Positions 9,353 to 22,518 of a stretch of DNA of 32,000 nucleotides are shown here, piece by piece. The notes under the pieces were generated by a model. That model did no database searches, had not been told where the DNA came from, and saw only the letters and a program-made list of their open reading frames with translations. This DNA comes from Qipengyuania aestuarii. Its GTDB lineage: Bacteria > Pseudomonadota > Alphaproteobacteria > Sphingomonadales > Sphingomonadaceae. The stretch is from the NCBI RefSeq assembly GCF_019711535.1, contig NZ_JAIGNP010000002.1, positions 902,318-934,317 on the forward strand, given 5' to 3'. Position 1 is the stretch's first letter. Each line of letters opens with the position of its first letter. A program made the position numbers and the translations under genes.

Positions 9353-10927
9353 ATGATCTTCGACAGGGTTAAGCCGCTCGATGCCATTCTGGCTGCGGCA
9401 CAAAGGAAGTCGTTGCACCGTTCATTGGGCGCGCTGCAATTAATGCTGTTTGGCATCGGTTGTATCATCGGCACCGGAATTTTCGTTTTGACGGCTGCTG
9501 GCGCTCAAAAGGCAGGTCCGGGCCTAATGCTGGCATTTGTCATCGCGGGGGCCGTCTGCGTGGTAGCCGCGCTCTGTTACGCCGAAATCGCTTCCATGAT
9601 CCCGGTAGCCGGTTCGGCCTATACCTACAGCTATGCCACCGTCGGGGAATTGGTCGCTTGGACCGTGGGCTGGGCGCTTATCCTCGAATACGCAATTGCC
9701 GCGTCGGCAGTTTCGGTGGGATGGTCCGGCTATTTCAGCGGCACCATTCTGAATGAATTTCTCGGCATTGAATTGCCGCGCTGGTTATCTGCAGGCCCAC
9801 TCGTCTTGGGCGGCGAGGCAGGCGGATTGATCAATTTGCCTGCTATGGTTATCGCTTTGCTTATCACATGGTTGTTGATGATTGGCACGAGCGAGAGCGC
9901 CAAGGTCAATGCCTTCCTCGTCGCTATCAAAGTGACAGCGCTGACGGCATTTATCGGACTTACTCTGACCAGTGCCTATTTCGATCCGGACAAGTTCAAC
10001 CCGTTTCTTCCGGCCGGTCTGTTCGGCGGTTTCGGCTCTGGGGTAGGTGCTGTAGGTGCTGCCGCGACTATCTTCTTCGCCTATGTGGGGTTCGATGCCG
10101 TATCTACGGCTGCTGAGGAAACGAAGAACCCGCAGCGCAATGTACCGATAGGTCTGGTCGGTTCGCTTATATTCTGCACTGTATTTTATATACTCGTGGC
10201 GGCGGGAGCGATCGGGACTATCGGTGGGCAGCCTATCATGGGGCCCGGCAATATCCCCTTTCCTGCAGGTTCCGAGGAGTTAGCCCGGCAATGCGCTCTT
10301 CCGGAGCACGTCGAGGCGTTGGTCTGCTCCAATGAAGCCTTGGCGCATGTGCTGCGTCAGATCGGATTTTCAGGGATTGGGAATGTTCTTGGCGTGGCTG
10401 CTTTTCTCGCCTTGCCATCGGTCATTCTTGTCCTGCTTTTTGCTCAGACTAGAATATTTTTCGTGATGAGTCGTGATGGCTTGCTGCCGGATGGTCTTTC
10501 GAAAGTGCATCCTCGGTGGAAGACGCCCTATGTCGTAACTGCCATTACCGGGGTGATCGTCGCCATCGGGGCCGCATTCTTTCCTGTTGGACAATTGGCC
10601 GACATTGCCAACGCGGGAACGCTCTATGCGTTCTTGATGGTGGCAGTTGCGGTCATGGTGCTGCGGCGGACTGCGCCAGAACGGAAGCGAGATTTCCGAA
10701 CGCCTATTTTGTGGTTGGTAGGCCCGGCAACTATTTTCGGTTGTGCTTCTTTGTTTCTCAATCTGCCAAGTGCGGCAATGCTGGTATTGCCTGTCTGGAG
10801 TTTGATCGGTCTGCTGGTTTATTTTGGCTATAGTAGAAGCCATAGCCGGTTGGGGCAGGGCATCGTTGAAGTAGCCGATGATGTGCTTGGGGAAGAAACC
10901 GCAGTTCCGATCCATTCGGATCGGTAA
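9353..10927 (+). CDS. Amino acid permease, APC superfamily (cationic amino acid transporter-like)
   Basis: 524 aa polytopic protein. The N terminus LMLFGIGCIIGTGIFVLTA...AGSAYTYSYA is typical of APC/CAT-type permeases. A strong terminator follows. Confidence 0.85.
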   Translation: MIFDRVKPLDAILAAAQRKSLHRSLGALQLMLFGIGCIIGTGIFVLTAAGAQKAGPGLMLAFVIAGAVCVVAALCYAEIASMIPVAGSAYTYSYATVGELVAWTVGWALILEYAIAASAVSVGWSGYFSGTILNEFLGIELPRWLSAGPLVLGGEAGGLINLPAMVIALLITWLLMIGTSESAKVNAFLVAIKVTALTAFIGLTLTSAYFDPDKFNPFLPAGLFGGFGSGVGAVGAAATIFFAYVGFDAVSTAAEETKNPQRNVPIGLVGSLIFCTVFYILVAAGAIGTIGGQPIMGPGNIPFPAGSEELARQCALPEHVEALVCSNEALAHVLRQIGFSGIGNVLGVAAFLALPSVILVLLFAQTRIFFVMSRDGLLPDGLSKVHPRWKTPYVVTAITGVIVAIGAAFFPVGQLADIANAGTLYAFLMVAVAVMVLRRTAPERKRDFRTPILWLVGPATIFGCASLFLNLPSAAMLVLPVWSLIGLLVYFGYSRSHSRLGQGIVEVADDVLGEETAVPIHSDR

Positions 10928-10933
10928 GAATCG

Positions 10934-10967
10934 AAAAGGGCCGCCCTATCGAGGCGGCCCTTTGTTT
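10934..10967. terminator. Bidirectional rho-independent terminator between convergent genes
   Basis: GGGCCGCC (10938-10945) pairs with GGCGGCCC (10953-10960) as an 8-bp GC stem with a 7-nt loop. It is flanked by AAAA (10934-10937) and TTTGTTT (10961-10967). Confidence 0.75.
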
Positions 10968-10979
10968 GATCTTGTTAAA

Positions 10980-11465
10980 TTAAAGGTCAGCTGATTTGAC
11001 GTGCTTTTCTTCAGCCTCTTCGTGGACACTCATCCCCAAGGCCATCTTTGCCGTGTTGAGGAGTCCCAGATCGCCGCTCCAGATTTCGGCATCGCCTAGA
11101 TCCATGCGCATGAAGAAAATGTCAGGATCGTTCTTGCCACCGTCGTACCAGGCTTCAACGAAATTGTTCCAGAATTGATCGAAGCGCTCCTGACTGGTTT
11201 CTTTTACCAGGTTTCCGTTGAAGCGGGCGAACATTTCGTGGCCCTTGCCGGCGAATGTCGCAGTTACAGGGCCGAGTTTGCAAAAGTCGCTTTTTGTGTG
11301 CGTGAAAAACCAGATCGAGCTGTTGGCATCCTTGTCGAGTTGCGGGCTCATCGGGACTGCGCTGGAGCTGTCGTTGTCTAGCTGCAGGAAAAGGAACGGG
11401 CTGTCGGCCAGCGCCTTCCAGAATTTGGTCTTCAGTTCGTCGGGATTACCTTCGGCGTGTTTCAT
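10980..11465 (-). CDS. Pyridoxamine 5'-phosphate oxidase-like protein (general stress protein 26-like)
   Basis: 161 aa. The pattern ...PMSPQ...SIWFFT...(split-barrel)...DPDIFFMRMDLGDAEIW resembles the PNPOx-like / GSP26 family. Assignment is by recollection only. Confidence 0.65.
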   Translation of the reverse strand: MKHAEGNPDELKTKFWKALADSPFLFLQLDNDSSSAVPMSPQLDKDANSSIWFFTHTKSDFCKLGPVTATFAGKGHEMFARFNGNLVKETSQERFDQFWNNFVEAWYDGGKNDPDIFFMRMDLGDAEIWSGDLGLLNTAKMALGMSVHEEAEEKHVKSADL

Positions 11466-11571
11466 TGTGGTCTCCGAGATTGGTTCATCTGGTCAATGAG
11501 CGAAGGGCAGGTTCGGTCCCGAGACAGATGCGGGAAAAGATGGAGCAGGAATTGCTAATGGACGGCTTTTG

Positions 11572-11586
11572 GAACATAATGGGAAC
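11572..11586 (+). promoter_or_regulatory. Alphaproteobacterial LexA operator (SOS box), GAAC-N7-GAAC
   Basis: GAACATAATGGGAAC is a perfect direct repeat of GAAC with a 7-nt spacer, 17 nt upstream of the imuA ATG. It is 12/15 identical to the box at 15595-15609. Confidence 0.7.
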
Positions 11587-11603
11587 ACAGAGTCGATTCC
11601 CTG

Positions 11604-12500
11604 ATGACCCAAACAGCCATTCCACCTTTACCTGCGACGGTTTCTGATGATGTTGCCACACTGCCTGTCTGGCATAGTGAGCGCTGGCGTCCTGGATTGG
11701 CTGCTGTGCAAGGCAAGGCGCTGCACAGCGAAGTTTTCACTTCTTCGAGAGAGGCAACCGGCATCGGGGCCGCACTGGCGCTGGCGTTAGACGACTGGCG
11801 TAGCGCCTTGTGCAATGATGATAAAGCGGTGCAAGATCAGCGAAATGTATTGTGGGTTCAAACCCGTGAGGCGGCGCGACTGGGGGGCAAGCCGTACCGG
11901 CCAGGATTGCCACCAGATTTGCAGTCGCGTGTAGTTCACGTTCTCACCGACAGACCTGAAGATGCGCTTTTCGCACTGGAGGAAGGTCTGCGCTGTCGCG
12001 AACTGTGCTTCGTTATAGGAGAAATTGCAGGCAATCCGAAAGGGCTGGACTTCACTGCTTCACGACGTTTGACGCTGACTGCGCAAAAATACGAAGTGCC
12101 TCTATTCCTGCTGAGGATAGATGCGGAGCGTGAACTGTCCTCGGCTCGAATGCGATGGGAAGTGACTGCTGCTCCGTCCGCTGAGCCCAGATGGAACGCG
12201 CAGGCCCCTGGTGATCCGTCGTGGCGCGGGGAACTGTTTCGCGCTCGTGCGCATCCGCCCGGTGAATGGATTTTCGAAGAGATCGGGACGCGACTGGAGG
12301 CTCGTCGCGACCTACCGAATGATTCTTCGCGGCAGAGTGACAAGCCATTTTCAGTCGCTCGGCATACGCAGCCATATTCAGCGCATACCAATGTTGTCGA
12401 AAGGCTGTCTTTTAGGCCGAAAAAGACTGCAGTTGAGAGTGCGAACACTGCGCTTTCGGAGCAGCTGCACTTTCGACAGGTCCAAGGCAATCGGCGCTAG
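11604..12500 (+). CDS. imuA: SOS mutagenesis protein ImuA (RecA/SulA-fold accessory factor of the ImuA-ImuB-DnaE2 mutasome)
   Basis: 298 aa. It sits directly upstream of imuB with a 14-nt gap and behind an SOS box. Core segments ALHSEVF, ATGIGAALALAL, VLWVQT, LEEGLRC, EVPLFLLR resemble alphaproteobacterial ImuA. The C-terminal 60-70 aa look non-conserved. Confidence 0.75.
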   Translation: MTQTAIPPLPATVSDDVATLPVWHSERWRPGLAAVQGKALHSEVFTSSREATGIGAALALALDDWRSALCNDDKAVQDQRNVLWVQTREAARLGGKPYRPGLPPDLQSRVVHVLTDRPEDALFALEEGLRCRELCFVIGEIAGNPKGLDFTASRRLTLTAQKYEVPLFLLRIDAERELSSARMRWEVTAAPSAEPRWNAQAPGDPSWRGELFRARAHPPGEWIFEEIGTRLEARRDLPNDSSRQSDKPFSVARHTQPYSAHTNVVERLSFRPKKTAVESANTALSEQLHFRQVQGNRR

Positions 12501-12514
12501 TTTGGTGATTTGCC

Positions 12515-14065
12515 GTGAATGTGCCACGCCGCATCCTCTCTATCTGGCTACCTGCCATGGCCATGGATCGTTGGCGGCTGGGCGCGGTCGAGAGGCGGAA
12601 ATTCGACGAAAAGCCCTTTGTTCTGACCGCTGATACAGCGCACGGTCCACGGATCGCTGCCACCAGCCGCCCAGGCGCTGCTGCGGGGGCAAGGCCGGGC
12701 ATGATGCTTGCCGATGCGCGCACGCTTTGTCCGGAAATCATAACGGCAGTTGCCGACCCGGCGGGCGATCTCGTTTTCTTGGAAAAGCTGGCCGTCTGGG
12801 CGCGGCGTTGGGGGCCGTGGTCGGCAATAGATGGAACCGATGGCCTGCTGGTCGATGTTACTGCAGTGGCGCATCTTTTCGGAGGCGAAGACAAATTACT
12901 TGTCGATGTGGCCGCCGCCTTCACACAGCGCGAGGTTGATATGCGCTGTGCCATAGCTCCGACTGCCGGGGCAGCCTGGGCGCTGGCTCACCACGCTGCA
13001 TCTGGCACGATCTTGCAACAACATGAGGATATGAAAGCAAGGCTGGGCGAACTTCCTGTAGAAGCGCTAAGGTTGGATCAGGATATCGTTACCGTTCTTC
13101 GCCGGCTTGGGCTCAAGAAATTGGGCGAACTTTCCACGATTGACAGCGATGCGATCAATCGACGGTTTCGCAACCGTAAATCTCCCTCAGCCAATCCGCT
13201 CACCCGGCTTGACCAGTTGCTTGGCCGGATACCGGAGCCTTTATTGCCGGTCATTCCCCAAAAAGTACCCATGGTGCAGCGCCGCCTGCTTGAGCCTATC
13301 CGTCACCGTCAGCTGCTTGATCAGGTGGTCAGGGATTTGGCTGGTGACATGGCACGCGAACTGGAGGGCAGAGGGGAGGGCGCCCGGGGACTTGAACTCG
13401 GCTTATGGCGCGTTGACGGAGAGGTGGTGACGCGCCACATCGAGCTTGCTGCAGCCACACGGGAGGCGGCCCATATTGTGCGCCTTTTTGCCAGAAAGCT
13501 TGACGATGTGGATGCCGGATTCGGAATCGAAATGTTGCGACTGCGAGCCATTTGGACCGAAAAGCTGGCGTTGGATCAAAGCGATATCGAGACGGCTTCG
13601 CAAAATCACGGCATTGCGCTGTCCACCTTGGTCGATCGGCTTGCGGTACGTCTTGGCCCGGGTGCCATCACGCGGCTCGTGCCCTTTCCCAGCCATATTC
13701 CCGAACGTGCGCAGCGCGGCCAATCGCCACTAGAACCGGAACCTACTAGTCAGGGGCAGCTAGCTTTCCATAAACGTCCTTTGAAACTGCTCGACAAAGC
13801 CGAGCGTATTGCCGTGCTCTATGCGACCCCCGACGGCTATCCGAAGCGATTTCGCTGGCGCGGCGAGGTGCATGATATCAAACGTGTTGAGGGTCCGGAG
13901 CGTATTGCTCCTGAATGGTGGCGCGAACGGGGCAGCACACGGTTACGCGATTATTACCGGATCGAGGACCAGCGGGGAAGGCGCTACTGGATCTATCGCC
14001 TTGGCATTATAGGAGATGGGCGCGGCGATATGCCGGACTGGTACCTGCAGGGCTTATTCGCCTGA
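12515..14065 (+). CDS. imuB: ImuB, catalytically inactive Y-family DNA polymerase paralogue
   Basis: GTG start. The N terminus RRILSIWLPAMAMDRW is typical of ImuB and lacks the D-x-D...FFA carboxylate motif of active Y-family polymerases. The C-terminal signature is GPERIAPEWW...RDYYRIED...WYLQGLFA. Confidence 0.85.
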   Translation: MNVPRRILSIWLPAMAMDRWRLGAVERRKFDEKPFVLTADTAHGPRIAATSRPGAAAGARPGMMLADARTLCPEIITAVADPAGDLVFLEKLAVWARRWGPWSAIDGTDGLLVDVTAVAHLFGGEDKLLVDVAAAFTQREVDMRCAIAPTAGAAWALAHHAASGTILQQHEDMKARLGELPVEALRLDQDIVTVLRRLGLKKLGELSTIDSDAINRRFRNRKSPSANPLTRLDQLLGRIPEPLLPVIPQKVPMVQRRLLEPIRHRQLLDQVVRDLAGDMARELEGRGEGARGLELGLWRVDGEVVTRHIELAAATREAAHIVRLFARKLDDVDAGFGIEMLRLRAIWTEKLALDQSDIETASQNHGIALSTLVDRLAVRLGPGAITRLVPFPSHIPERAQRGQSPLEPEPTSQGQLAFHKRPLKLLDKAERIAVLYATPDGYPKRFRWRGEVHDIKRVEGPERIAPEWWRERGSTRLRDYYRIEDQRGRRYWIYRLGIIGDGRGDMPDWYLQGLFA

Positions 14066-14083
14066 GCATCGCCTTTCGCAAGC

Positions 14084-14482
14084 TCAGCTGTCACGCGAAA
14101 CTAGCGAAGCCCGGCGTCCTCGTTTGGCTACGGGAATATTATCGAATTTCGCTACCGGCCCGGATTCCACTTCAACCACATCACAGGTTTCCTCGACAAC
14201 CGCTGGAGGTATGGGGCGCTCGAAAAGAAATCCGCAACTGCTGTCACGAGTCCATACGATCTTACCGAAGAACTCGTGCTCTCCCCATGTCAGCAAGCCT
14301 GAAACATCTTTTTGCGGCGGATTGGGTGTCTCGAAGCGAGCTCCGGACTGTGAAAGATCTGACAAGCGTCCATCCCGATTACCGCCAGGCATCTTCAACC
14401 TTGCACTACAATCTACGGAATAGCGCTGTACCGTTCTGCGCTCGTCGGTCTTCTCACCGGATTTTTTCTGGAAAAGTGCCAC
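14084..14482 (-). CDS. Stand-alone PilZ domain protein (predicted c-di-GMP receptor)
   Basis: 132 aa. Both c-di-GMP binding motifs are present: R16-TVQ-R20 (RxxxR) and D42-L-S-Q-S-G47 (DxSxxG), with about 21 residues between them. It is convergent with imuB; the stops are 18 nt apart. Confidence 0.7.
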   Translation of the reverse strand: MALFQKKSGEKTDERRTVQRYSVDCSARLKMPGGNRDGRLSDLSQSGARFETPNPPQKDVSGLLTWGEHEFFGKIVWTRDSSCGFLFERPIPPAVVEETCDVVEVESGPVAKFDNIPVAKRGRRASLVSRDS

Positions 14483-14572
14483 TCGGCGAGCCTCTCTTAT
14501 TCATCTCTTTTTACAAGGTAATGGTTAATTTCGAGTTATCACGAGCCTCAAGTTGCCGTGACAAATGATTGG

Positions 14573-14596
14573 AAAAGGGGCGCGTAATAGCGCCCC
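14573..14596 (-). terminator. Hairpin terminator downstream of the hydrolase gene
   Basis: GGGGCGC (14577-14583) pairs with GCGCCCC (14590-14596) as a 7-bp stem with a 6-nt loop. On the minus strand TTTT follows (complement of 14573-14576). It lies 25 nt after the stop at 14622. Confidence 0.55.
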
Positions 14597-14621
14597 TTAT
14601 TTGATATGGTGAGATCCAGGT

Positions 14622-15440
14622 TCAGTGCTTAGCTTGACCGAGAAACTGGAGGATGTCGTCACCCAGTCGCTCAGTTTGTGTGGCGAAGACGGCATGTGGC
14701 TCACCTTCATACTCAATTAACGATGCGCTTTTGACTTGGTCGGCTACGGCACGCCCAGTGGCGTTAATCGGTACGGTCACATCCTTGGTGCCATGTATGA
14801 CCAGCGTTGGAACGCGAAAGCTAGCAAGCTCTTCCCGAAAATCGGTTGTTGCGAAAGCATCGGCCGACTGAAGCGTAGCATATTGGCTCGCATGCATGGT
14901 CGTTTGCCAAGCCCAGTGGCGTTCTTCGTCGCTTACATCGTTGCCGTAAAAATCTTTAAAGAAACCCGTAAAGAAGGCCCGAAAATCTTTCTTCATGCCT
15001 TCTGTCATTTCATCAAACGTGCTTTGAGGAACGCCGTCGGGATTATCTTCGGTTTTCAACATGTAGGGCACGACAGAGCTAACAAGCACTGTCTGCGTTA
15101 CGCCTCGGCCTTCATGGCGCGACATATAACGAGCGATCTCTCCTCCACCCATTGAAAAGCCGACTAGAGCAACGTTGTCGGTCGCTCCGATCTCTTTCAT
15201 CACATCAGCCAGATCGTCGGCAAAAGTATCATAATCATAGCCTGACTTTGCGTGGTCCGAATGGCCGAAACCGCGGCGATCATATGCGATCGCGCGATAG
15301 CCGTTTTCTGCCAGTTTCATCATGATCGGGTCCCAGCTATCCGCAGAAAGGGGCCAACCATGAATGAGGATCACAGGCCGTCCTTCGCCCAATTCCTTGT
15401 AGCGCAGATGCGTGCCATCTCGGGTAGTAATATTTGCCAT
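14622..15440 (-). CDS. Alpha/beta hydrolase, non-haem haloperoxidase / arylesterase-like
   Basis: Starting at ATG 15440 (MANITTRDGTHLRYKE...) gives 272 aa, with GGAAGGGA as SD. HGWP oxyanion motif and nucleophile elbow GFSMGGG (GxSxG) are present. The track's start at 15539 adds 33 residues that look non-conserved. Confidence 0.85.
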   Translation of the reverse strand: MANITTRDGTHLRYKELGEGRPVILIHGWPLSADSWDPIMMKLAENGYRAIAYDRRGFGHSDHAKSGYDYDTFADDLADVMKEIGATDNVALVGFSMGGGEIARYMSRHEGRGVTQTVLVSSVVPYMLKTEDNPDGVPQSTFDEMTEGMKKDFRAFFTGFFKDFYGNDVSDEERHWAWQTTMHASQYATLQSADAFATTDFREELASFRVPTLVIHGTKDVTVPINATGRAVADQVKSASLIEYEGEPHAVFATQTERLGDDILQFLGQAKH

Positions 15441-15594
15441 CAGCACATCCCTTCCGTTCGTTTGCTTTTCAAACAAATCGGGATGGCTGTGAGTTCCGTA
15501 TGCGCTGCGGAGCCGGCGAAATGGGAAGGGGCACGTCACGAATTTGCGGTATAAAGCACGAGCCCATCATTTGTTCTTGGTGAATTCTAATTTA

Positions 15595-15609
15595 GAACAT
15601 ATAGAGAAC
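15595..15609 (+). promoter_or_regulatory. Alphaproteobacterial LexA operator (SOS box), GAAC-N7-GAAC
   Basis: GAACATATAGAGAAC is a perfect GAAC-N7-GAAC ending 2 nt before the radical-SAM ATG (15612). It overlaps a TATAGA -10-like hexamer (15600-15605). An imperfect GTTC-N7-ATTC lies just upstream at 15573-15587. Confidence 0.7.
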
Positions 15610-15611
15610 GA

Positions 15612-16856
15612 ATGGCTGCGCAAACCGTCCTTCAGAAGCTCGAGATTCTCGCCGACGCCGCTAAGTACGATGCATCCTGCGCATCCTCCGGCACGGCGAA
15701 CAAGAACAGTCTCGGAGGCAAGGGCATCGGATCGACGGAAGGCATGGGCATTTGTCACGCATATGCCCCCGATGGACGCTGCATCTCGCTGCTCAAGATA
15801 TTGCTGACCAATCACTGCGTGTTTGACTGCCATTACTGCGTCAATCGGAAGAGTTCGAACGTGATAAGGGCGCGCTTCACACCGCAAGAAGTGGTCGATC
15901 TCACTCTCGCTTTTTACCGGCGCAATTATATCGAAGGTTTGTTTCTCTCCTCCGGCATCGTGAAGAACTCTAACCATACGATGGAGCAGATCGTCGAAGT
16001 TGCCCGTATCCTACGCGAAGAGCATGATTTTCGCGGCTATATTCATCTTAAGACCATTCCCGAGGCGGATTCGGAGATCGTCCATCAGGCCGGGCTTTAT
16101 GCTGATCGCGTCTCAATCAATGTCGAATTGCCGACTGACAGCGGGCTGACCCGCCTCGCTCCCGATAAGGATGCGCGGCAGATTGAAGGCGCAATGGGCA
16201 AGGTGAAGGCCGATTTAGTCGAGGCGAAAGATGCAAAGAAGCGGTTTCGCCACGCACCGCGTTTCGCCCCTGCCGGCCAGTCCACGCAGATGATCGTCGG
16301 CGCCGATGCCGCGACCGATGCCGATATTGTGGGCAAGGCGAGCCGGCTCTACGATAATTTTCGCCTGCGCCGTGTTTATTACAGTGCCTTTTCGCCGATA
16401 CCAGATGCCAGCGCTGTGCTGCCGCTCAAGCGCCCTCCCTTGATCCGCGAGCATAGGCTCTATCAATCCGACTGGTTGATGCGCTTCTATGGCTACAAGC
16501 CGAGCGACGTAATGCAGGCGACAGAGGCAGACGGAAATCTGCCGCTCGATATTGATCCCAAACTCGCTTGGGCATTGAAGTTTCGCGAAGCTTTTCCGGT
16601 GGATGTGAACAGGGCGAGCAAAGAGCAGTTGCTGCGCGTGCCGGGGCTAGGGGTGAAGGCGGTACATAAAATCCTTGTCAGCCGCCGTCATCGTACACTG
16701 CGGCTTGACGACGTAGCACTGCTTACGCAGTCGATCGCCAAGGTGCGGCCTTTTATCTGCACCGTGGACTGGCGGCCAATCACACTGACCGATCGTGCCG
16801 ACCTGCGCAGTTTGCTCGCACCCAAAACCGAACAGCTTGAACTGTTTGCCGCATGA
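15612..16856 (+). CDS. Putative DNA modification/repair radical SAM protein with C-terminal helix-hairpin-helix (TIGR03916-type)
   Basis: 414 aa. N terminus KLEILADAAKYDASCASSG. Radical SAM motif C69-x3-C73-x2-C76 (CVFDCHYC, nt 15816-15839). C-terminal HhH SKEQLLRVPGLGVKAVHKIL (about nt 16614-16682). The stop overlaps the next gene's start (ATGA at 16853-16856). Confidence 0.85.
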   Translation: MAAQTVLQKLEILADAAKYDASCASSGTANKNSLGGKGIGSTEGMGICHAYAPDGRCISLLKILLTNHCVFDCHYCVNRKSSNVIRARFTPQEVVDLTLAFYRRNYIEGLFLSSGIVKNSNHTMEQIVEVARILREEHDFRGYIHLKTIPEADSEIVHQAGLYADRVSINVELPTDSGLTRLAPDKDARQIEGAMGKVKADLVEAKDAKKRFRHAPRFAPAGQSTQMIVGADAATDADIVGKASRLYDNFRLRRVYYSAFSPIPDASAVLPLKRPPLIREHRLYQSDWLMRFYGYKPSDVMQATEADGNLPLDIDPKLAWALKFREAFPVDVNRASKEQLLRVPGLGVKAVHKILVSRRHRTLRLDDVALLTQSIAKVRPFICTVDWRPITLTDRADLRSLLAPKTEQLELFAA

Positions 16857-18304
16857 CCGCGCTCCAGCATGTCAAGCTCGGCACCTATTATGTGGTGCAT
16901 TTACCCGAGCCGGATGATTTCGATTTCTGGCGTGAACAGGCGCGGGCACTGGTACAATGCGCTGTTCCGCCCGATCGCGTCGCCTGGGTCGAACCTGGCG
17001 GAAGCGGCGACCTGTTCGCACATGGTGAACGCCGTGCGCCCGCGCCTCCGGTCGATATCCGTCCCGTACGTGCCAACCGGCGTTTTTTGAGCTTGGCGAA
17101 GAATGCGATCCTTCATTCCGATGCAGAACGCTTTGCGCTGCTCTACCGCTTGCTGTGGCGGTTGCAGACCATTCCACGAATCATGGAAGACAAGGCCGAT
17201 CCCGACCTGCGCCGGATCGAGGAACTGGATAAGAATGTCCGGCGCGACAGCCACAAGATGCATGCCTTCGTGCGCTTCCGGCTCGTAGAGAGTGCAAGTG
17301 TTTCAGAGGGGCCGGAGTTGGGCGAGCATTACGTCGCCTGGTTCGAGCCCGAGCATCACATCTTGCGCGCGAATGCTGGCTTTTTTATGCGGCGCTTTTC
17401 CAACATGCGCTGGTCGATCCTGACCCCGCAGGGCAGCCTGCATTGGGACACCGAGACCATGTCCGAAGGTCCCCCTGCCCAGCGCCGCGATGCGCCCGGC
17501 GGGGATTCAATGGAGGATTTGTGGCGCAGCTATTATGCGTCGATCTTCAACCCCGCGCGTCTCAAAGTCGGCGCCATGTTGAAGGAAATGCCCAAGAAAT
17601 ACTGGAAGAATATGCCGGAAGCCGCGCTTATTCCCGAGTTGGTGGCGGGAGCGCAGAAACGGGAGAGCACCATGGTCGAGAAAGGTACGCTCGAATTCGA
17701 GGAGCGGCCCGAGACGCTGGAAGCGATCGATAAAGCCATCCATGCCTGCCGCAAATGTCCGATTGGCCTGCTCGACAGCCATGCTGTCATGGGGGAAGGG
17801 CCGCGAGATGCTGCATTCATGATCGTGGGCGAGCAGCCAGGCGATCAGGAAGATCAGCAGGGCCGTCCCTTCGTCGGTCCGGCAGGCCAGCTACTTGACG
17901 TGCATCTGGAAAAGGTCGGGATTGATCGGCGCGTGGCTTATGTCACCAATACGGTCAAGCATTTCAAATATGTACAGCGCGGCAAGCGGCGGCTGCACCA
18001 GAATCCGGGTGCAAAAGAGATCGATACCTGCCGTTGGTGGATCGAGAGTGAGCGCGCAATTGTGCAGCCCAAGCTGGTTTTGGCCATGGGCGCCAGTGCG
18101 GCGCGTGGCATACTGGGAAAAACGGTAAGTATCTCCAAGGTCCGCAGTACCCCGATTCCGCTGGAAGACGGCAGTGAGTTATGGGTCACCGCACATCCTT
18201 CCTATCTGCTGCGTCTCGATGGCCGCGCACGCGAGGAGCAAGAGCGATTATTTGATGCCGATCTCGCCGCCGTGAAGGTGAGGCTCGAGGAGCTGACACA
18301 ATGA
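16853..18304 (+). CDS. Fusion protein: N-terminal DUF4130 (probable DNA metabolism protein, TIGR03915-type) plus C-terminal UdgX-like family-4-related uracil-DNA glycosylase domain (TIGR03914-type)
   Basis: 483 aa. The C-terminal domain has a CxxC (ACRKCP), motif A GEQPG (aa 326-330, nt 17828-17842), a KRRLH loop (aa 378-382, nt 17984-17998) and motif B HPSYLLR (aa 448-454, nt 18194-18214). The N-terminal 270 aa or so (..FALLYRLLWRL.., ..HKMHAFVRF.., ..WRSYYASIFNPAR..) match my memory of DUF4130. Confidence 0.8.
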   Translation: MTALQHVKLGTYYVVHLPEPDDFDFWREQARALVQCAVPPDRVAWVEPGGSGDLFAHGERRAPAPPVDIRPVRANRRFLSLAKNAILHSDAERFALLYRLLWRLQTIPRIMEDKADPDLRRIEELDKNVRRDSHKMHAFVRFRLVESASVSEGPELGEHYVAWFEPEHHILRANAGFFMRRFSNMRWSILTPQGSLHWDTETMSEGPPAQRRDAPGGDSMEDLWRSYYASIFNPARLKVGAMLKEMPKKYWKNMPEAALIPELVAGAQKRESTMVEKGTLEFEERPETLEAIDKAIHACRKCPIGLLDSHAVMGEGPRDAAFMIVGEQPGDQEDQQGRPFVGPAGQLLDVHLEKVGIDRRVAYVTNTVKHFKYVQRGKRRLHQNPGAKEIDTCRWWIESERAIVQPKLVLAMGASAARGILGKTVSISKVRSTPIPLEDGSELWVTAHPSYLLRLDGRAREEQERLFDADLAAVKVRLEELTQ

Positions 18305-18322
18305 TTTTCCGGGATCGGTGCG

Positions 18323-21300
18323 ATGCCCGAGAATGACCAGCAGATACCAAAGCGAACCATTGATCTTGATCCCGAGGACGTAAATGCACCAGCGCGCGCA
18401 CCATTCGTAGAACTGGGTCTTGTTTCCTGTTTCAGTTTCCTGCGTGGAGCCAGCGATGCAGTCGACCTCGCGCTGCAGGCGCAAAAGCTGGGATATGATG
18501 CTATCGGGATAGCCGATGCCAATAGCATGGCAGGCGTGGTGCGCATGCATACCGAGGCAAAGAAGCTCAAGCTCAAGCCGTGCATCGGCTGTAGAATAGA
18601 GACTGCCGAAGGTTTGGCCTTTCTTGCGTATCCACGAGATCGCCAAGCCTATGGTCGCTTGTGCAGCCTGATTTCTGCAGGTCGGATGAGGACATTCGAT
18701 GGCCGATGGCAGGAGAAGGGCGCCTGCGACATCTCGCTAGATATGCTTGCTGAGCACAGTGAAGGCGTGCAGTTGATTCTCATCCCGCCGTCGGATCTGG
18801 CAAGCGAGTTTACCATTCCCGGCGGTGCTGCTGATGACCATGCCTCGGATGGTGAGAAGGGAAGGGCGCTATACACGGCGAAGTTTCAAGAAATCGTTCC
18901 GCTCCTTGCCGCCCGGTTTCCAACGCTGTGTCATATGGCAGCCAGTTTCCTTTATACTGGCGATGATCTTGCCCGGATTGCGCGGATCGACGCGCTTGCA
19001 AAGGCTAACGGTCTTTCGATCCTGGCCTCCAATGACGTTCATTATCACACACCCGAACGTCGTCCGCTGCAGGACGTGATGACTGCAATTCGCCACAAGA
19101 CCACTGTGGCGCGTGCCGGATACTTGCTCCACGGCAATGCCGAGCGATATCTGAAGCCGCCCGAGACGATGTGCCGTTTGTTCGAACCATGGCCGCATGC
19201 AATCGAGGCCGCGCGCGCAGTTGCTGACGCCTGCGATTTCAGCCTTGATCAGTTGCGATATGAATACCCCGAGGAATTCTATCCCGAGGGGACCCATCCA
19301 CAGGCTTATCTTGAAACTGAGACTTGGAAGGGGGCCGACTGGCGCTATCCCGAAGGTGTCCCCAAAAGCGTGGCAGCGACGCTAAGCAAGGAATTGGCGC
19401 TGATTGGGAAGATGGATCTTGCCCGCTATTTCCTGACAATCAAGGACATCGTCGACTTCGCTCGAAAGGAGGTTGATCCACCTATTTTGTGCCAAGGGCG
19501 CGGCAGTGCGGCCAATTCGGCTGTTTGCTACTGTCTTGGTATCACCAATGTCGACCCGTCGAAACACCAGCTCCTGTTCGATCGCTTCATCTCCGAAGAT
19601 CGGCGAGAGCCACCTGATATCGACGTGGATTTCGAGCATGAGCGGCGCGAGGAAGTCATCCAGTACCTCTACCGCAAATACGGCCGCAGGCGAGCTGGGC
19701 TATGCGCCACGGTGATCCACTATCGTCCGCGAATGGCGATCCGCGAAGTAGGTAAGGCGATGGGTCTGAGCGAGGATGTCACTGCGGCGCTCGCAAAAAC
19801 CGTATGGGGTGGATGGGGCCGTGAAATCAGTGATAAGCACGCCGCAGAAACCGGCATGGATGTAACCGATCCGCATTTAAAACGCGTTCTCAAATTGACC
19901 GAACAGATGATTGGTATGCCACGCCATTTGTCCCAACATGTCGGCGGTTTCATCCTCACCGACGGCGCGCTTACGGAAACGGTTCCGGTTGGTAACGGGG
20001 CTATGCCCGATCGCAGCTTTATCGAGTGGGATAAGGACGATATCGATGCGCTCGGTATTCTAAAGGTCGACGTCCTGGCCCTGGGAATGCTTACTTGCAT
20101 CAGGAAATGCCTCGACCTTCTGGACGATCATCACGGACAACAGCTAAGCCTTGCCACGGTCCCGGGCGAGGATCCGGAAACATATGCCATGCTGCGCAAG
20201 GGCGACTCGCTGGGCGTGTTTCAGGTGGAAAGTCGCGCACAGATGAACATGCTGCCTCGTCTGCGGCCGCGCGAGTTTTACGATCTCGTTATCCAGGTTG
20301 CGATCGTCCGCCCTGGGCCGATCCAGGGCGACATGGTGCATCCGTACCTCAAGCGTCGCCGCGGAGCAGAGGAGGTGGTTATCCCCGCGCCATCGCCTCA
20401 GTGCGGCCCTTCAGACGAGCTATCGAGCATTCTTGAGCGCACGCTTGGCGTACCAATCTTTCAGGAACAGGCGATGAAGATCGCGCTAGATGCGGCCAAG
20501 TTTTCGTCCGAGGAAGCGAACCGGTTACGCAAGGCCATGGCGACTTTCCGCAGCCGCGGCATGGTGGACGAATTGCAGGACCTGATGGTCGAACGCATGG
20601 TCGATCGTGGCTACGAACGAGATTTCGCCCAGCGCTGCTTCAACCAGATACGCGGTTTCGGCGAATACGGTTTCCCCGAAAGCCATGCGGCGAGCTTCGC
20701 CCATCTGGTCTATGTGTCCAGCTGGCTCAAGTGCCACTTTCCAGCGGCGTTCGCCTGCGCGCTGCTCAATTCGCAGCCGATGGGATTTTATGCCCCGGCG
20801 CAGATCGTGCGCGACGCGGCGGAACATGGGGTGCAGGTCCTGCCTGCCGATGTGAACCACTCGCACTGGGACTGCACGCTGGAAAAGCTGCAGCCGCCGG
20901 ATGCTCCTACAGATGGTCGCGTCGGCAATTGCGTGGCGCTGCGGCTGGGCTTGAGGCAGATCGATGGCCTGCCGGAAGCTGTCGCTGCGCAATTGGTAGC
21001 GGAACGAGAAGAGAGGGGCATCTATGATGATGTGCAAGCCTTGCGCGATCGAGCGCGGATCGGTCCTGCCCATGTCGAACGGCTGGCCAGTGCAGATGCC
21101 TTCGGCTCGATGAACCTATCTCGCAGGCAGGCACTATGGGATGCGAGGAGCCTCATCGCGGGACCTGACTTGCCGCTGTTCATGGCCGCTGCTGCCCGTG
21201 ACGAGGGTGCGGAAAAGCAAGTTACGCGCCTGCCGCAAATGCCGCTGTCCGAGGAAGTCGTCGCGGATTACCAGACTACTCGCCTCAGCCTCAAGGCGCA

Positions 21301-21856
21301 TCCCATGACTTTCCTGCGGGCAAGCTTAAACGATCGCGGGTTCGTGCGTGCCTGCGATCTTCGAGAGAAGAAATTTCGCAGCATGGTCCATGTCGCTGGC
21401 GTGGTGCTGATCCGCCAGCGCCCTGGCAGTGCCAAAGGTGTGTGCTTCATCACTTTGGAAGACGAAACCGGCGTCATCAATCTCGTGATCTGGCCGGATC
21501 TGAAAGAGAAGCAGCGGCGCGTGGTGATGGGGGCGCGATTGATGGAAGTACGCGGACGTGTCGAATATGACGACGAAGTGATCCATGTTATCGCACAACA
21601 CATGACCGATGCGACGGCGGATCTCCACAAGCTCTCCGACGACATGCTCAACGCCCCGCTTGCGCGCGCCGATCATGTCTCCTCACCTTTACCCGACAAG
21701 TTCAACCCACGTGACAATCTGCGTGAGGGTCAGAATGATCCTTACCGGCCAGTCGAACCATGGCAGGAGCCACAGCCCGGCAATCGCGAGTGCGGATGGC
21801 ACCAAGGGCATCCGCGAAATGTTCGCATTATTCCGAAATCGCGCGACTTCCATTGA
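18323..21856 (+). CDS. dnaE2: Error-prone DNA polymerase DnaE2 (ImuC), pol III alpha paralogue
   Basis: 1177 aa. PHP N terminus FVELGLVSCFSFLRGAS. Pol III alpha core motifs GRGSAANSAVCYCLGIT, DIDVDFEH, KVDVLALGMLT, FQVESRAQM. OB-fold region, and the C-terminal tail HPRNVRIIPKSRDFH typical of DnaE2. It starts 18 nt after the preceding stop. Confidence 0.92.
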   Translation: MPENDQQIPKRTIDLDPEDVNAPARAPFVELGLVSCFSFLRGASDAVDLALQAQKLGYDAIGIADANSMAGVVRMHTEAKKLKLKPCIGCRIETAEGLAFLAYPRDRQAYGRLCSLISAGRMRTFDGRWQEKGACDISLDMLAEHSEGVQLILIPPSDLASEFTIPGGAADDHASDGEKGRALYTAKFQEIVPLLAARFPTLCHMAASFLYTGDDLARIARIDALAKANGLSILASNDVHYHTPERRPLQDVMTAIRHKTTVARAGYLLHGNAERYLKPPETMCRLFEPWPHAIEAARAVADACDFSLDQLRYEYPEEFYPEGTHPQAYLETETWKGADWRYPEGVPKSVAATLSKELALIGKMDLARYFLTIKDIVDFARKEVDPPILCQGRGSAANSAVCYCLGITNVDPSKHQLLFDRFISEDRREPPDIDVDFEHERREEVIQYLYRKYGRRRAGLCATVIHYRPRMAIREVGKAMGLSEDVTAALAKTVWGGWGREISDKHAAETGMDVTDPHLKRVLKLTEQMIGMPRHLSQHVGGFILTDGALTETVPVGNGAMPDRSFIEWDKDDIDALGILKVDVLALGMLTCIRKCLDLLDDHHGQQLSLATVPGEDPETYAMLRKGDSLGVFQVESRAQMNMLPRLRPREFYDLVIQVAIVRPGPIQGDMVHPYLKRRRGAEEVVIPAPSPQCGPSDELSSILERTLGVPIFQEQAMKIALDAAKFSSEEANRLRKAMATFRSRGMVDELQDLMVERMVDRGYERDFAQRCFNQIRGFGEYGFPESHAASFAHLVYVSSWLKCHFPAAFACALLNSQPMGFYAPAQIVRDAAEHGVQVLPADVNHSHWDCTLEKLQPPDAPTDGRVGNCVALRLGLRQIDGLPEAVAAQLVAEREERGIYDDVQALRDRARIGPAHVERLASADAFGSMNLSRRQALWDARSLIAGPDLPLFMAAAARDEGAEKQVTRLPQMPLSEEVVADYQTTRLSLKAHPMTFLRASLNDRGFVRACDLREKKFRSMVHVAGVVLIRQRPGSAKGVCFITLEDETGVINLVIWPDLKEKQRRVVMGARLMEVRGRVEYDDEVIHVIAQHMTDATADLHKLSDDMLNAPLARADHVSSPLPDKFNPRDNLREGQNDPYRPVEPWQEPQPGNRECGWHQGHPRNVRIIPKSRDFH

Positions 21857-21879
21857 ACCTCGCGTTAGGCGCCGATCGC

Positions 21880-22518
21880 ATGTTTGACGCCGAGCGATTA
21901 CTGGCTTTTGCTCTTGTCACCGCTGCGACAAGTATCGTGCCCGGACCGTCGATGATGTTTGTCATGGGGCAGGCAATCTGGCGCGGTCCGCGGTCTGGCT
22001 GGACAGCGCTGGTGGGTATGCAGATCGGCTACATTATCTGGTGGATCGCTGCGGCATTCGGACTTGGTACGCTGGCTAAGGCCTACCCCCTGGCCTTTCG
22101 TCTTCTGGCGCTCTTCGGAATAGCCTATCTAGCGTGGCTAGGGGTAAAAGCCATCTGGCTTTCCTTTCATGCCGACGACGCAGATAATGCCGAGCCTTCC
22201 CGCAAACCATCGTCCCATGCATTTCGTGATGGAATTGCAGTGGCCATCGGCAATCCCAAGTCACTGGTCTACATGGTGGCGGTCATTCCCCCGTTCGTTG
22301 ATCCGGAACTGCCGGTGGGATGGCAGATCGTCACGCTCGCGCTGATCGCGCTTATACTCGATATGATCATTGGCTCGCTGTACATCTTTGCCGGAAAGCG
22401 TTTGGCTGGCGCTATGGAAAAGACCGCGACGCGACGCTGGATCGATCGAGCGATTGGCTGCGTATTCATTTTGATAGCCTTGGCTGTTGCAGTCGATCTC
22501 TATGGAACTGAGCTGTGA
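21880..22518 (+). CDS. LysE/RhtB-family amino acid exporter
   Basis: Starting at ATG 21880 (MFDAERLLAFALVTAATSIVPGPSMMFV...) gives 212 aa with 5-6 helices, typical of LysE-type translocators. The track's start at 21760 would overlap dnaE2 by 97 nt and adds only basic, non-hydrophobic sequence. Confidence 0.8.
   Translation: MFDAERLLAFALVTAATSIVPGPSMMFVMGQAIWRGPRSGWTALVGMQIGYIIWWIAAAFGLGTLAKAYPLAFRLLALFGIAYLAWLGVKAIWLSFHADDADNAEPSRKPSSHAFRDGIAVAIGNPKSLVYMVAVIPPFVDPELPVGWQIVTLALIALILDMIIGSLYIFAGKRLAGAMEKTATRRWIDRAIGCVFILIALAVAVDLYGTEL

Follow-up and report, generated by a model that had tools for sequence, protein, structure and literature searches.

In the marine sphingomonad Qipengyuania aestuarii, dnaE2, the gene for an error-prone DNA polymerase, is sited behind a radical-SAM (rSAM)/UdgX repair gene pair and apart from imuA-imuB, the genes that usually accompany it. 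The evidence, which comprises the sequence itself, its conservation, promoter register, gene coupling and natural deletion variants, supports dnaE2 as the predicted distal gene of a LexA-controlled rSAM/DUF4130-UdgX/dnaE2 unit, separate from a LexA-controlled imuA-imuB unit. The window, a stretch of 32,000 nucleotides, contains the following features.

10980..11465, minus strand: pyridoxamine-5'-phosphate-oxidase-like gene (Pfam PF16242); conserved upstream flank, divergent from imuA.
11552..11580, plus strand: predicted imuA promoter from a promoter scan (-35 TTGCTA, 17-nt spacer, -10 CATAAT).
11572-11586, plus strand: predicted LexA box 1, GAACATAATGGGAAC, a perfect GAAC-N7-GAAC overlapping the -10 of the imuA promoter.
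11590..11600, plus strand: leader element GAGTCGATTCC between box 1 and the imuA start; consensus GAGTCGtTCC from 61 distinct sequences.
11604..12500, plus strand: imuA (divergent ImuA), assigned by an NF033429 match and its place directly before imuB.
12515..14065, plus strand: imuB (Y-family-like, with ImuB C-terminal domain; Pfam IMS, IMS_C, DUF6504).
14084..14482, minus strand: PilZ-domain gene (Pfam PF07238), convergent with imuB.
14622..15539, minus strand: alpha/beta-hydrolase gene (Pfam Abhydrolase_1), divergent from the rSAM promoter.
15577..15605, plus strand: predicted rSAM promoter (-35 TTGGTG at 15577-15582, 17-nt spacer, -10 TATAGA at 15600-15605).
15595-15609, plus strand: predicted LexA box 2, GAACATATAGAGAAC, a perfect GAAC-N7-GAAC covering the -10 of the rSAM promoter.
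15612..16856, plus strand: rSAM gene (TIGR03916, NCBIfam 569 bits against a 343.5-bit cutoff; Pfam Radical_SAM).
16853..18304, plus strand: fusion gene of DUF4130 (TIGR03915) and a UdgX-family uracil-DNA-binding domain (TIGR03914); both parts exceed their NCBIfam cutoffs (223 and 314 bits).
18323..21856, plus strand: dnaE2 (imuC), error-prone DNA polymerase (NF004225, 1382 bits against a 939-bit cutoff).
21880..22518, plus strand: LysE-family exporter gene (Pfam PF01810); conserved downstream flank.

Profile searches and inspection of the sequence bore out the gene identities, coordinates and junctions given in a first-pass annotation of this DNA, including the ATGA overlap of the rSAM stop and fusion-gene start (16853-16856) and the 18-nt spacer between the fusion gene and dnaE2 (18305-18322). 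NF033429 was the sole NCBIfam match for ImuA in 12/12 clade members scanned (best E 1e-7), with the scores of all 12 proteins below the 150-bit cutoff. The rSAM protein contains the motif C69-x3-C73-x2-C76; an HHH_3 domain scored 22.8 bits, under the Pfam gathering cutoff of 27. The dnaE2 start codon is fixed by a conserved N-terminus, M-P-E/D. The likely LysE start, ATG 21880, lies 23 nt past the dnaE2 stop with no terminator predicted between them, and LysE is possibly co-transcribed with dnaE2; in relatives it is found 3' of dnaE2, or of the UDG gene in loci that have only the pair. The PF16242 gene lies at the same place in most Erythrobacteraceae loci, in 3/4 canonical imuAB-dnaE2 loci and also in pair-only loci.

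When the neighbours of TIGR03916 were compared in Sphingomonadales, the rSAM-UDG-dnaE2 layout was found to typify a clade, not one genome. Loci in this composite state form one clade of the rSAM tree, which indicates a single origin of the layout (Erythrobacteraceae, Croceicoccus and one Novosphingobium branch), in which the pair entered between imuB and dnaE2. In its common form in the clade the layout comprises five contiguous genes and a boxed promoter inside the cluster, with a gap from imuB to rSAM of 63 nt in 29 loci. The PilZ gene is confined to the closest relatives (L001, L010, L093, L097 and a few others) and is missing from contiguous-cluster loci, the hydrolase gene is patchy at the same position in relatives, and local GC dips over this segment, to 0.50-0.52 at PilZ. 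Comparison of these loci points to the PilZ and hydrolase genes as a later, local insertion that physically split the cluster. The earlier description of a mutasome split into two boxed units stands as regards the units; the physical separation belongs to this local event.

What the pair contributes to the mutasome is a separate matter. Its proposed wiring into the damage-inducible mutasome is upheld as far as a shared LexA unit with dnaE2 is concerned, and a biochemical role there can only be suggested. The linkage may instead be a genomic accident, in which a LexA-regulated module landed in a permissive spot and dnaE2 borrows its promoter, so that only SOS timing is shared; we give this reading slightly better than an even chance. 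The pair stands alone in 50 Sphingomonas and Sphingobium loci, without dnaE2 or imuB within 8-10 kb, and also in Rhodobacterales, Rhodospirillales, Hyphomicrobiales, Burkholderiales, Bacteroidales and Cytophagales. Even in the composite clade the two modules come apart freely: some six lineages kept the pair and lost imuAB and dnaE2, and five loci lost the pair and kept dnaE2. The interval between imuB and rSAM is a hot spot for insertions (PilZ, hydrolase), with gaps of 44-3514 nt. An accident would, however, have to accommodate an independent linkage with a different gene order next to lexA in the Flavobacterium Nonlabens (Aravind 2013 supplement), the retention across most of a family-level clade of the stop/start overlap between the UdgX fusion gene and dnaE2, and contig L149, in which rSAM and DUF4130 are lost and an intact stand-alone UdgX ORF is kept between imuB and dnaE2.

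The central proposal of the first-pass annotation, that dnaE2 is the third gene of a LexA-controlled unit, was strongly supported by three comparative observations. In 18/22 genome loci of relatives, dnaE2 starts between -1 and +3 nt from the UDG stop. No box was found between the UDG gene and dnaE2 in the window, or before dnaE2 in any composite locus scanned. Finally, five metagenome loci (L143, L146, L161, L162 and L164) have lost the rSAM and UDG coding sequence and kept the boxed rSAM promoter, now 29-112 nt upstream of dnaE2; an opposite-strand gene lies between imuB and this promoter in four of the five. In canonical relatives imuB and dnaE2 overlap and the internal box is absent. Expression of dnaE2 mainly from a promoter of its own, located in the 3' end of the UdgX-fusion gene or the 18-nt spacer and independent of both the rSAM promoter and LexA, is unlikely. 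It would suit the window, where the junction is an 18-nt gap rather than an overlap and longer than that of most relatives, and the inserts of 110-290 nt that some relatives tolerate there. Since several of these are palindromic inserts of about 110 nt, and the window's spacer is itself longer, tight coupling is not obligatory. Nevertheless, a promoter scan of 18000-18322 on the plus strand called no promoter-like site, the junction is without a box in every locus, the -1 to +3 nt spacing prevails, and it is the rSAM promoter that stays before dnaE2 after loss of the pair. The UDG gene may still harbour a weak internal promoter near its 3' end.

The two perfect GAAC-N7-GAAC boxes reported earlier at imuA and rSAM were reproduced in position and in their identity at 12/15 positions. 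Box 1, GAACATAATGGGAAC, lies 17 nt upstream of the imuA ATG at 11604, and box 2, GAACATATAGAGAAC, ends 2 nt short of the rSAM ATG at 15612. A third perfect copy (2971-2985) is deep within a histidine-kinase gene (1300-3405) and is consistent with chance (0.79 expected per window). The pattern GAACATA-N4-GAAC, allowing at most one mismatch, occurs in the window only at the two promoter sites (expected 0.29). Upstream of rSAM, 78/79 Sphingomonadales genome loci and 50/50 metagenome loci found with ImuB as seed carry the box without a mismatch, and a perfect box was found upstream of imuA in the relatives scanned. Across about 130 independent loci the same boxes stand at orthologous promoters, a conservation that exceeds what chance would be expected to give.

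The imuA promoter keeps its register across 85 loci, which represent 61 distinct sequences. For rSAM, a box-anchored position matrix over 79 sequences gave the consensus -35 cTTGgC (T 89%, G 87%) and -10 TATAAg (T 97%, A 100%), both at a constant distance from the ATG. A scanner built on the E. coli consensus did not call this promoter because its -10 (TATAGA; TATAAG in the family) is without T at position 6. The distance from the box to an in-frame ATG is 2 nt in 56/78 loci and, in 8 more, 3-4 nt; in the window the rSAM ATG is 6 nt downstream of the -10. With box 2 and the -10 this close, the transcription start is expected at or beside the A of the ATG, and the rSAM mRNA would be leaderless. 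In a Porphyrobacter-like subclade the leader is instead short and contains a clear Shine-Dalgarno sequence, which fits a transcription start at the box end.

LexA is indicated as the regulator by the way in which the rSAM-promoter operator switches with the LexA motif of the host. It is GAAC-N7-GAAC in Phaeobacter, Paracoccus, Azospirillum, Agrobacterium, Ensifer and Shinella, a perfect E. coli-type CTGT-N8-ACAG (CTGTATAAACATACAG) in two Caballeronia of the Burkholderiales, and a Cheo-like AAACATATGTTC, read by eye from the sequence, in the Firmicute Acetoanaerobium; the Acinetobacter promoter matched none of the motifs scanned. In the same loci the motif also stands at the imuA promoter, which experiments have established as a target of LexA in Caulobacter (PMC9578287, PMC12700426). 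SOS control of the pair is covered by PMC8565304, which cites reports for Caulobacter and Verrucomicrobia and adds Bacteroidetes, so that the suggestion in the first-pass annotation that the pair features in LexA-regulon predictions proved correct. LexA binding and damage induction are predicted at both promoters. It is very improbable that the repeats are instead AT-rich parts of the core promoter, or a binding site for some other regulator, with a fortuitous likeness to the alphaproteobacterial SOS box: the box 2 spacer doubles as the -10 element, so part of the conservation of box 2 is owed to the promoter, but the GAAC arms are 100% invariant while flanking positions vary, the motif recurs at imuA, orthologous promoters carry the E. 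coli-type and Cheo-like boxes, and published regulon studies include the pair. Acquisition of box 2 for dnaE2 was also considered and rejected; the box accompanies the rSAM pair everywhere, including lineages in which the pair stands alone.

We consider it probable that the SOS mutasome and an embedded repair gene pair form two LexA-repressed units with the history outlined here. Unit 1 would run from the imuA promoter through imuA-imuB, and unit 2 from the rSAM promoter through rSAM, DUF4130/UdgX and dnaE2, possibly on into LysE, each with a direct-repeat LexA operator over its -10. Without DNA damage, LexA would block RNA polymerase at both promoters; upon damage, RecA-stimulated self-cleavage of LexA would free both. 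Co-transcription is predicted for unit 2, its translation proceeding as a coupled series (the ATGA overlap, then the spacer, which is 18 nt here and 0-3 nt in most relatives), so that DnaE2 would be co-produced with the rSAM and UdgX proteins, and ImuA and ImuB would come from the other promoter. The ancestral site would have comprised the minus-strand oxidase-like gene, imuA-imuB-dnaE2 and LysE, into which a self-contained LexA-boxed rSAM-UdgX module entered a single time, separating imuB from dnaE2. The PilZ and hydrolase genes would have arrived later upstream of the rSAM promoter in the Q. aestuarii lineage, and we propose that they ended any read-through from imuB and so left dnaE2 wholly dependent on that promoter.

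Several parts of this arrangement have known counterparts. Split, separately LexA-boxed mutasome cassettes are already established, as summarised from Erill et al. 2006 in PMC3901139. The imuA'-imuB and dnaE2 units of Mycobacterium tuberculosis are likewise each LexA-boxed, with dnaE2 parted from imuB (PMC3901139). In Q. aestuarii, in contrast, dnaE2 is probably without its own promoter, third behind an unrelated two-gene module whose LexA-boxed, apparently leaderless promoter it is predicted to use, and the two units are only 1.5 kb apart (44-77 nt in many relatives). A LexA-regulated COG4277 (rSAM)/COG1573 (UDG) operon is described for Caulobacter crescentus, Verrucomicrobia and Bacteroidetes in PMC8565304, citing da Rocha 2008 and Erill 2016. 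Pair and regulator are the same, with an alphaproteobacterial operator of the GTTC-N7-GTTC type just before rSAM; however, the reports describe the pair as a bicistron on its own, as do the 10/10 annotated outgroup loci inspected here show it, whereas in Q. aestuarii it lies between imuB and dnaE2 and is predicted to be coupled to dnaE2 translation. In Nonlabens dokdonensis, the supplementary neighbourhood list of Aravind, Anand and Iyer 2013 gives SRAP-?-DinB(ImuB-like)-DnaE2-SplB-like rSAM-DUF4130, divergent from lexA. This single, unanalysed table line also places rSAM/DUF4130 in one LexA-associated operon with DnaE2 and an ImuB-like gene, physically linked, but in another phylum, with the pair after dnaE2 and DUF4130 listed without a UDG domain.

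The fusion protein encoded at 16853-18304 aligns through its C-terminal domain to Mycobacterium smegmatis UdgX (PDB 6AIL; E 1e-39), and this domain keeps GEQPG (326), KRRLH (378-382, with the covalent-trap His) and HPS (448). In the M. smegmatis enzyme (PDB 6AIL, 6AJO and others) the His of the KRR(I/L)H loop bonds covalently to the abasic site; covalent trapping is a candidate trait of the fusion protein. Unlike M. smegmatis UdgX, the domain here shares a protein with DUF4130, has an rSAM enzyme as partner, and is predicted to be LexA-controlled and co-transcribed with dnaE2. SRAP/YedK/HMCES proteins also form a covalent abasic-site adduct and are SOS-regulated and linked to ImuB/DnaE2, UmuDC and DinB operons (PMC3765255), and SRAP is induced next to imuAB-dnaE2 in Sphingopyxis (PMC6472365). 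Although unrelated to these in fold and chemistry, the UdgX domain might by analogy provide a similar shielding of abasic sites. Earlier publications already cover LexA control of the pair, cassettes split into LexA-boxed units, and a dnaE2-rSAM-DUF4130 operon in one flavobacterium; new here is the clade-wide placement of dnaE2 third behind the rSAM/UdgX pair, on what is predicted to be the pair's own LexA-boxed promoter.

Gene identities proposed for this region by the first-pass annotation, together with its ATGA overlap and 18-nt spacer, were upheld by NCBIfam and Pfam matches and by a check of the junctions. The positions it gave for two GAAC-N7-GAAC direct repeats, and their identity at 12 of 15 positions, agreed exactly with the sequence. 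The genes concerned are as follows.

11604-12500, + strand: divergent ImuA; sole NCBIfam match NF033429, with a score under the cutoff
12515-14065, + strand: ImuB; Pfam IMS, IMS_C and DUF6504, all over cutoff
14084-14482, - strand: PilZ protein (PF07238)
14622-15539, - strand: alpha/beta hydrolase (Abhydrolase_1)
15612-16856, + strand: TIGR03916 radical-SAM (rSAM) protein; 569 bits (cutoff 343.5)
16853-18304, + strand: fusion of TIGR03915 (DUF4130; 223 bits, cutoff 112) and TIGR03914 (uracil-DNA glycosylase, UDG/UdgX; 314 bits, cutoff 190)
18323-21856, + strand: DnaE2, error-prone Pol III alpha paralogue; NF004225, 1382 bits (cutoff 939)

The start of the fusion gene overlaps the rSAM stop codon (ATGA), and 18 nt separate the fusion gene from dnaE2. 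An uninterrupted imuABC operon is not found in the window: imuB is separated from dnaE2 (imuC) by the rSAM/UdgX pair and by two genes on the opposite strand. The imuA product matches NF033429 weakly, at 24.6 bits, far under the 150-bit cutoff. This family is nevertheless the sole match for the ImuA of all 12 clade members scanned (best E-value in the clade 1e-7), and PDB sequence searches with ImuA and with an ImuA profile gave no meaningful match. The position and regulation of the gene fit ImuA. No Rfam family or tRNA was detected in 10900-22600, and terminator-like hairpins inside the unit occurred at chance level (13 found vs 11 expected). A LysE-family exporter gene (21880-22518, likely ATG at 21880) lies on the same strand 23 nt past the dnaE2 stop codon, with no predicted terminator in the interval 21856-21880. 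In relatives, a LysE gene directly follows dnaE2, or follows the UDG gene at loci without mutasome genes, and it may be the fourth gene of the LexA-controlled unit.

Of the two direct repeats, box 1 (GAACATAATGGGAAC, 11572-11586) lies 17 nt upstream of the imuA ATG and box 2 (GAACATATAGAGAAC, 15595-15609) lies 2 nt upstream of the rSAM ATG; both are perfect matches to GAAC-N7-GAAC. The extended motif GAACATA-N4-GAAC, with one mismatch allowed, was found in the window only at these two promoters (0.29 expected). One more perfect GAAC-N7-GAAC, at 2971-2985, was dismissed as a chance match because it is intragenic, deep within a histidine-kinase gene (1300-3405); the chance expectation is 0.79 per window. 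The kinase gene overlaps by 4 nt the next gene, which encodes a sigma-54-dependent response regulator (3402-4769); together they span 1300-4769.

To place the boxes in a wider setting, 80 genome loci seeded with the rSAM protein and 80 metagenome loci seeded with ImuB were compared, along with 17 loci from other orders and phyla obtained by protein-level searches of a plasmid/chromid collection. The closest rSAM homologues are those of Qipengyuania polymorpha (96%) and Q. vulgaris (95%), which places the window in the Erythrobacteraceae (Sphingomonadales). A separate homologue search with the rSAM protein gave only relatives at least 88% identical, and distant lineages were sampled through the plasmid/chromid collection. 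A perfect box precedes rSAM in 78 of the 79 genome loci with upstream sequence, the remaining locus having one mismatch, and in 50/50 metagenome loci. The imuA promoters of the same loci carry the same motif as the rSAM promoters; in Caulobacter the imuA promoter is an established LexA target, and the SOS box there is GTTCN7GTTC (PMC9578287, PMC12700426).

Outside the clade, GAAC-N7-GAAC was found before rSAM in Phaeobacter, Paracoccus, Azospirillum, Agrobacterium vitis, Ensifer and Shinella. Two Caballeronia (Betaproteobacteria) carry at this position CTGTATAAACATACAG, a perfect E. coli-type box (CTGT-N8-ACAG), and the Firmicute Acetoanaerobium carries AAACATATGTTC, which by eye matches the Cheo box at 11 of 12 positions. 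Upstream of rSAM in Acinetobacter, no match to any of the motifs scanned was found; to our knowledge this genus has no LexA. The strongest argument for LexA as the regulator comes from this switch of operator type, at orthologous rSAM promoters, with the LexA specificity of the host. Taken together, the comparisons indicate that the boxes are real operators and that their regulator is very probably LexA. In PMC8565304, the COG4277-COG1573 pair is given as SOS-controlled in Alphaproteobacteria, Verrucomicrobia and Bacteroidetes, which bears out the suggestion of the first-pass annotation that members of the pair appear in LexA-regulon predictions.

Searches by tblastn with E. coli LexA, RecA and SSB queries gave no match in the 2.6 Mb of comparison loci; neither these loci nor the window has a lexA, recA or ssb gene. 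Across 1.46 Mb of Sphingomonadales flanks, approximately 23 further perfect boxes were counted vs approximately 36 expected by chance, nearly all of them intragenic. One of them, GAACATATGGTGAAC of Novosphingobium profundi (locus L045, ~16076-16090), is well formed and is flanked by a parA-like gene (14833-16026) on one side and a parB-like gene (16143-17303) on the other; it could belong to a LexA-controlled partition gene or be a chance match.

A matrix of the rSAM promoter was built from 79 sequences aligned on the box, and no position of the GAAC arms varies among them. The -35 element is conserved as cTTGgC (T 89%, G 87%); it is followed by a 17-nt spacer and a -10 element, TATAAg, that occupies box positions 5-10 (T 97%, A 100%), beyond which the second GAAC arm and a further 2 nt lead up to the ATG. 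The distance from the box to the in-frame start is 2 nt in 56 of 78 loci and 3-4 nt in another 8. The window promoter reads TTGGTG (15577-15582), 17 nt, TATAGA (15600-15605), GAACGA, ATG, with box 2 spanning the -10 and extending to the start codon region. The -10 ends 6 nt upstream of the ATG, the A of which is the seventh base after it. Since this geometry leaves no space for a ribosome-binding site and puts the A of the ATG seven bases past the -10, we infer that the rSAM mRNA is leaderless and that its start site falls within the LexA footprint. With a LexA operator over a leaderless promoter, a single site of repression would take in both the start codon and the point where transcription begins.

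At imuA, a scanner using an E. coli consensus called the promoter TTGCTA-17-CATAAT, and box 1 overlaps the -10 CATAAT. The same scanner did not call the rSAM promoter, because the -10 of the latter is without the final T of the E. coli-type consensus. Between box 1 and the imuA start, the element GAGTCG(T/A)TTCC (11590-11600) is kept throughout a set of 85 loci that comprises 61 distinct sequences; its GAG could serve as a Shine-Dalgarno-like element, or the motif could supply an additional GTTC half-site in inverted orientation.

Members of a Porphyrobacter/Erythrobacter subclade have a leader of 10-50 nt with a clear Shine-Dalgarno sequence (GAAAGGTG) immediately 3' of the rSAM box (L008, L009, L012, L014-L017, L019, L021, L024, L034 and L069). 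The leadered form fits the same predicted transcription start point as the leaderless form, and the subclade appears to present a natural leaderless-to-leadered switch at one promoter.

The coupling of dnaE2 to the pair was assessed at the 22 genome loci in which dnaE2 follows the fusion gene; the DnaE2 N-terminus, conserved as M-P-E/D, was used to set the dnaE2 start codon.

Spacing between the UDG stop codon and the dnaE2 start codon
-1 nt (TGATG overlap): 6 of 22 loci
+1 nt: 10 of 22 loci
+3 nt: 2 of 22 loci
+9 nt: 1 of 22 loci
more than 100 nt, with inserted palindromic repeats inside: 3 of 22 loci

No box was found at the UDG-dnaE2 junction in any locus examined. Natural variants were then sought among the 60 scorable loci of the ImuB-seeded metagenome set. 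The pair follows imuB in 50 of these, and a canonical imuA-imuB-dnaE2 arrangement, in which imuB and dnaE2 overlap or lie no more than 15 nt apart with no internal box, occurs in 4. Five loci have lost the rSAM and UDG coding sequences and kept the rSAM promoter: L143 and L146 retain cttggc-17-GAACATATATAGAAC-nn-ATG 63 and 30 nt upstream of dnaE2, respectively, L161 and L162 retain the box 29 nt upstream, and L164 retains the leadered promoter form 112 nt upstream. In four of the five, an opposite-strand PilZ or hydrolase gene stands between imuB and the relic promoter; because imuB is cut off in this way, the retained rSAM promoter is the sole plausible driver of dnaE2 there. The first-pass annotation had named the boxed rSAM promoter as that of dnaE2 and had placed dnaE2 in the LexA-boxed rSAM unit. 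The promoter relics, in which selection has retained this element, corroborate the former, and with the junction distances and the absence of a box at the junction they support the latter. On this comparative evidence it is highly probable that dnaE2 belongs to the LexA-controlled rSAM unit.

The remaining scorable locus (L149, the single contig Ga0164243_10016972) contains an intact stand-alone UdgX open reading frame of 239 aa (5770-6489), in which GEQPGD, KRRLH and HPS are all present. It lies between imuB, which ends at 5727, and dnaE2, which starts at 6550, giving the order imuA-imuB-udgX-dnaE2; this locus lacks both rSAM and DUF4130, and its udgX is without a LexA box.

Two further features of these intergenic regions were observed. 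A palindromic, MITE-like element of approximately 110 nt (CGTCATCCCCGCGAAGGCGGGGG...GGAATGACG) occupies the UDG-dnaE2 spacer of several relatives (L094, 14433-14557; L119, L125, L165, L007 and L020) and does not occur in the window; attenuation or stabilisation of the RNA by a hairpin are conceivable roles for it. The alpha/beta-hydrolase gene lies back-to-back with the rSAM promoter of the window, approximately 55 nt from its start to box 2. A hydrolase gene recurs beside the rSAM promoter in L161, L162, L125, L127, L138 and L147, adjoining the promoter relic after deletion of the pair, and the LexA site between them might control it in the divergent direction as well.

The composite state, with the pair between imuB and dnaE2, is restricted to one clade of the rSAM neighbour-joining tree, comprising Erythrobacteraceae, Croceicoccus and one Novosphingobium branch; Sphingomonas, Sphingobium and the outgroups have the pair alone. 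Composite loci are flanked by a pyridoxamine-5'-phosphate-oxidase-like (Pnpox-like) gene upstream, on the opposite strand, and by LysE downstream. Pnpox is also upstream in 3 of the 4 canonical loci, and loci inside the clade that have the pair without mutasome genes share these flanks (e.g. Q. vulgaris L001, L003, L011 and L069). The Pnpox-like gene of the window (10980-11465, - strand) borders the intergenic region with box 1. In Sphingomonadales such a gene lies next to imuA or rSAM on the upstream side and is transcribed away from it, and in Shinella (Hyphomicrobiales; L175:5712-6146) it lies just downstream of UdgX.

The commonest present form is a contiguous five-gene cluster in which a 63-nt imuB-rSAM spacer contains the box (29 loci). 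The PilZ and hydrolase insertion, where GC falls to 0.50-0.52, was found in the window and in its nearest relatives L010, L093 and L097. The simplest history would begin with an ancestral Pnpox / imuA-imuB-dnaE2 / LysE site, into which a self-regulated rSAM-UdgX module would have inserted once, between imuB and dnaE2; insertions, including PilZ and the hydrolase, would then have built up upstream of the rSAM promoter, and repeated deletions would have taken out either module. The physical split of the mutasome in the window is thus a local elaboration of the clade-wide five-gene layout. The locus would document an SOS operon rewired through insertion of a self-regulated module.

UdgX is a suicide uracil-DNA glycosylase, and hence biochemically striking, in which a histidine forms a covalent bond to the abasic site. 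We know of no physiological role for UdgX and of no substrate for its usual partners, the TIGR03916 rSAM protein and DUF4130, which occur in roughly a fifth of prokaryotic genomes according to the TIGRFAMs family description. The C-terminal domain of the fusion aligned to M. smegmatis UdgX (6AIL) with an E-value of 1e-39 and has the signatures GEQPG at 326, KRRLH at 378-382 and HPS at 448, His382 being the equivalent of the UdgX histidine. The rSAM protein has the canonical CxxxCxxC cluster (C69-x3-C73-x2-C76) and a helix-hairpin-helix region, but its Pfam HHH_3 match is under the gathering cutoff. Searches of PDB sequences with this protein gave nothing meaningful, and its AlphaFold2 model (mean pLDDT 36.8, from a 16-sequence alignment at 88-96% identity) was unusable. 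A 2026 preprint predicts that DUF4130 and rSAM form a heterodimer whose narrow channel would suit single-stranded nucleic acid, and DUF4130 was named a 'predicted mutagenesis-related enzyme' by Aravind et al. (2013, PMC3765255).

Whether the pair is more than a co-regulated neighbour of dnaE2 was considered, and its being a working accessory module of the ImuA-ImuB-DnaE2 mutasome is put forward as a tentative and rather unlikely proposal. The UdgX domain would excise uracil accumulating in damage-exposed single-stranded gaps and, by analogy with SRAP/YedK, could then covalently cap the resulting abasic sites; the capped gap would stay intact until DnaE2-dependent bypass or filling takes place, and processing of the lesion, or of the DNA-protein adduct, would fall to the rSAM-DUF4130 complex. 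Signatures of such a role would be the translational coupling between the UdgX fusion and dnaE2, the UdgX-only variant of L149 and an independent flavobacterial linkage in Nonlabens; these facts would allow a partnership without proving it. The unlinked state of the pair in most lineages, and the independent loss of pair and mutasome genes within the composite clade, argue against an obligate partnership.

No account was found in the searchable literature of how the pair is embedded between imuB and dnaE2 across the clade, of translational coupling between the UdgX fusion and dnaE2, of promoter relics before dnaE2, of the imuA-imuB-udgX-dnaE2 variant, or of the apparently leaderless, operator-covered geometry of the rSAM promoter. 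The locus is of value as a tractable system in which to study what UdgX and its rSAM partner do, with a natural genetic handle: the pair is probably chained to DnaE2 transcriptionally and translationally, relatives are missing either module, and one contig has UdgX only. Clean comparisons are therefore possible in cultivable Erythrobacteraceae, for traits such as damage-induced mutation rate and spectrum, tolerance of uracil or abasic sites, and DNA-protein crosslinks. Already known are split, boxed imuABC cassettes, LexA control of the rSAM/UDG pair and one catalogued dnaE2-rSAM-DUF4130 operon. Cassettes with separately LexA-boxed parts are recognised variants of imuABC, as set out in PMC3901139, and the catalogued operon, SRAP-?-DinB-DnaE2-rSAM-DUF4130 of Nonlabens, adjoins lexA (Aravind et al. 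2013, supplement) and represents an independent linkage in another phylum.
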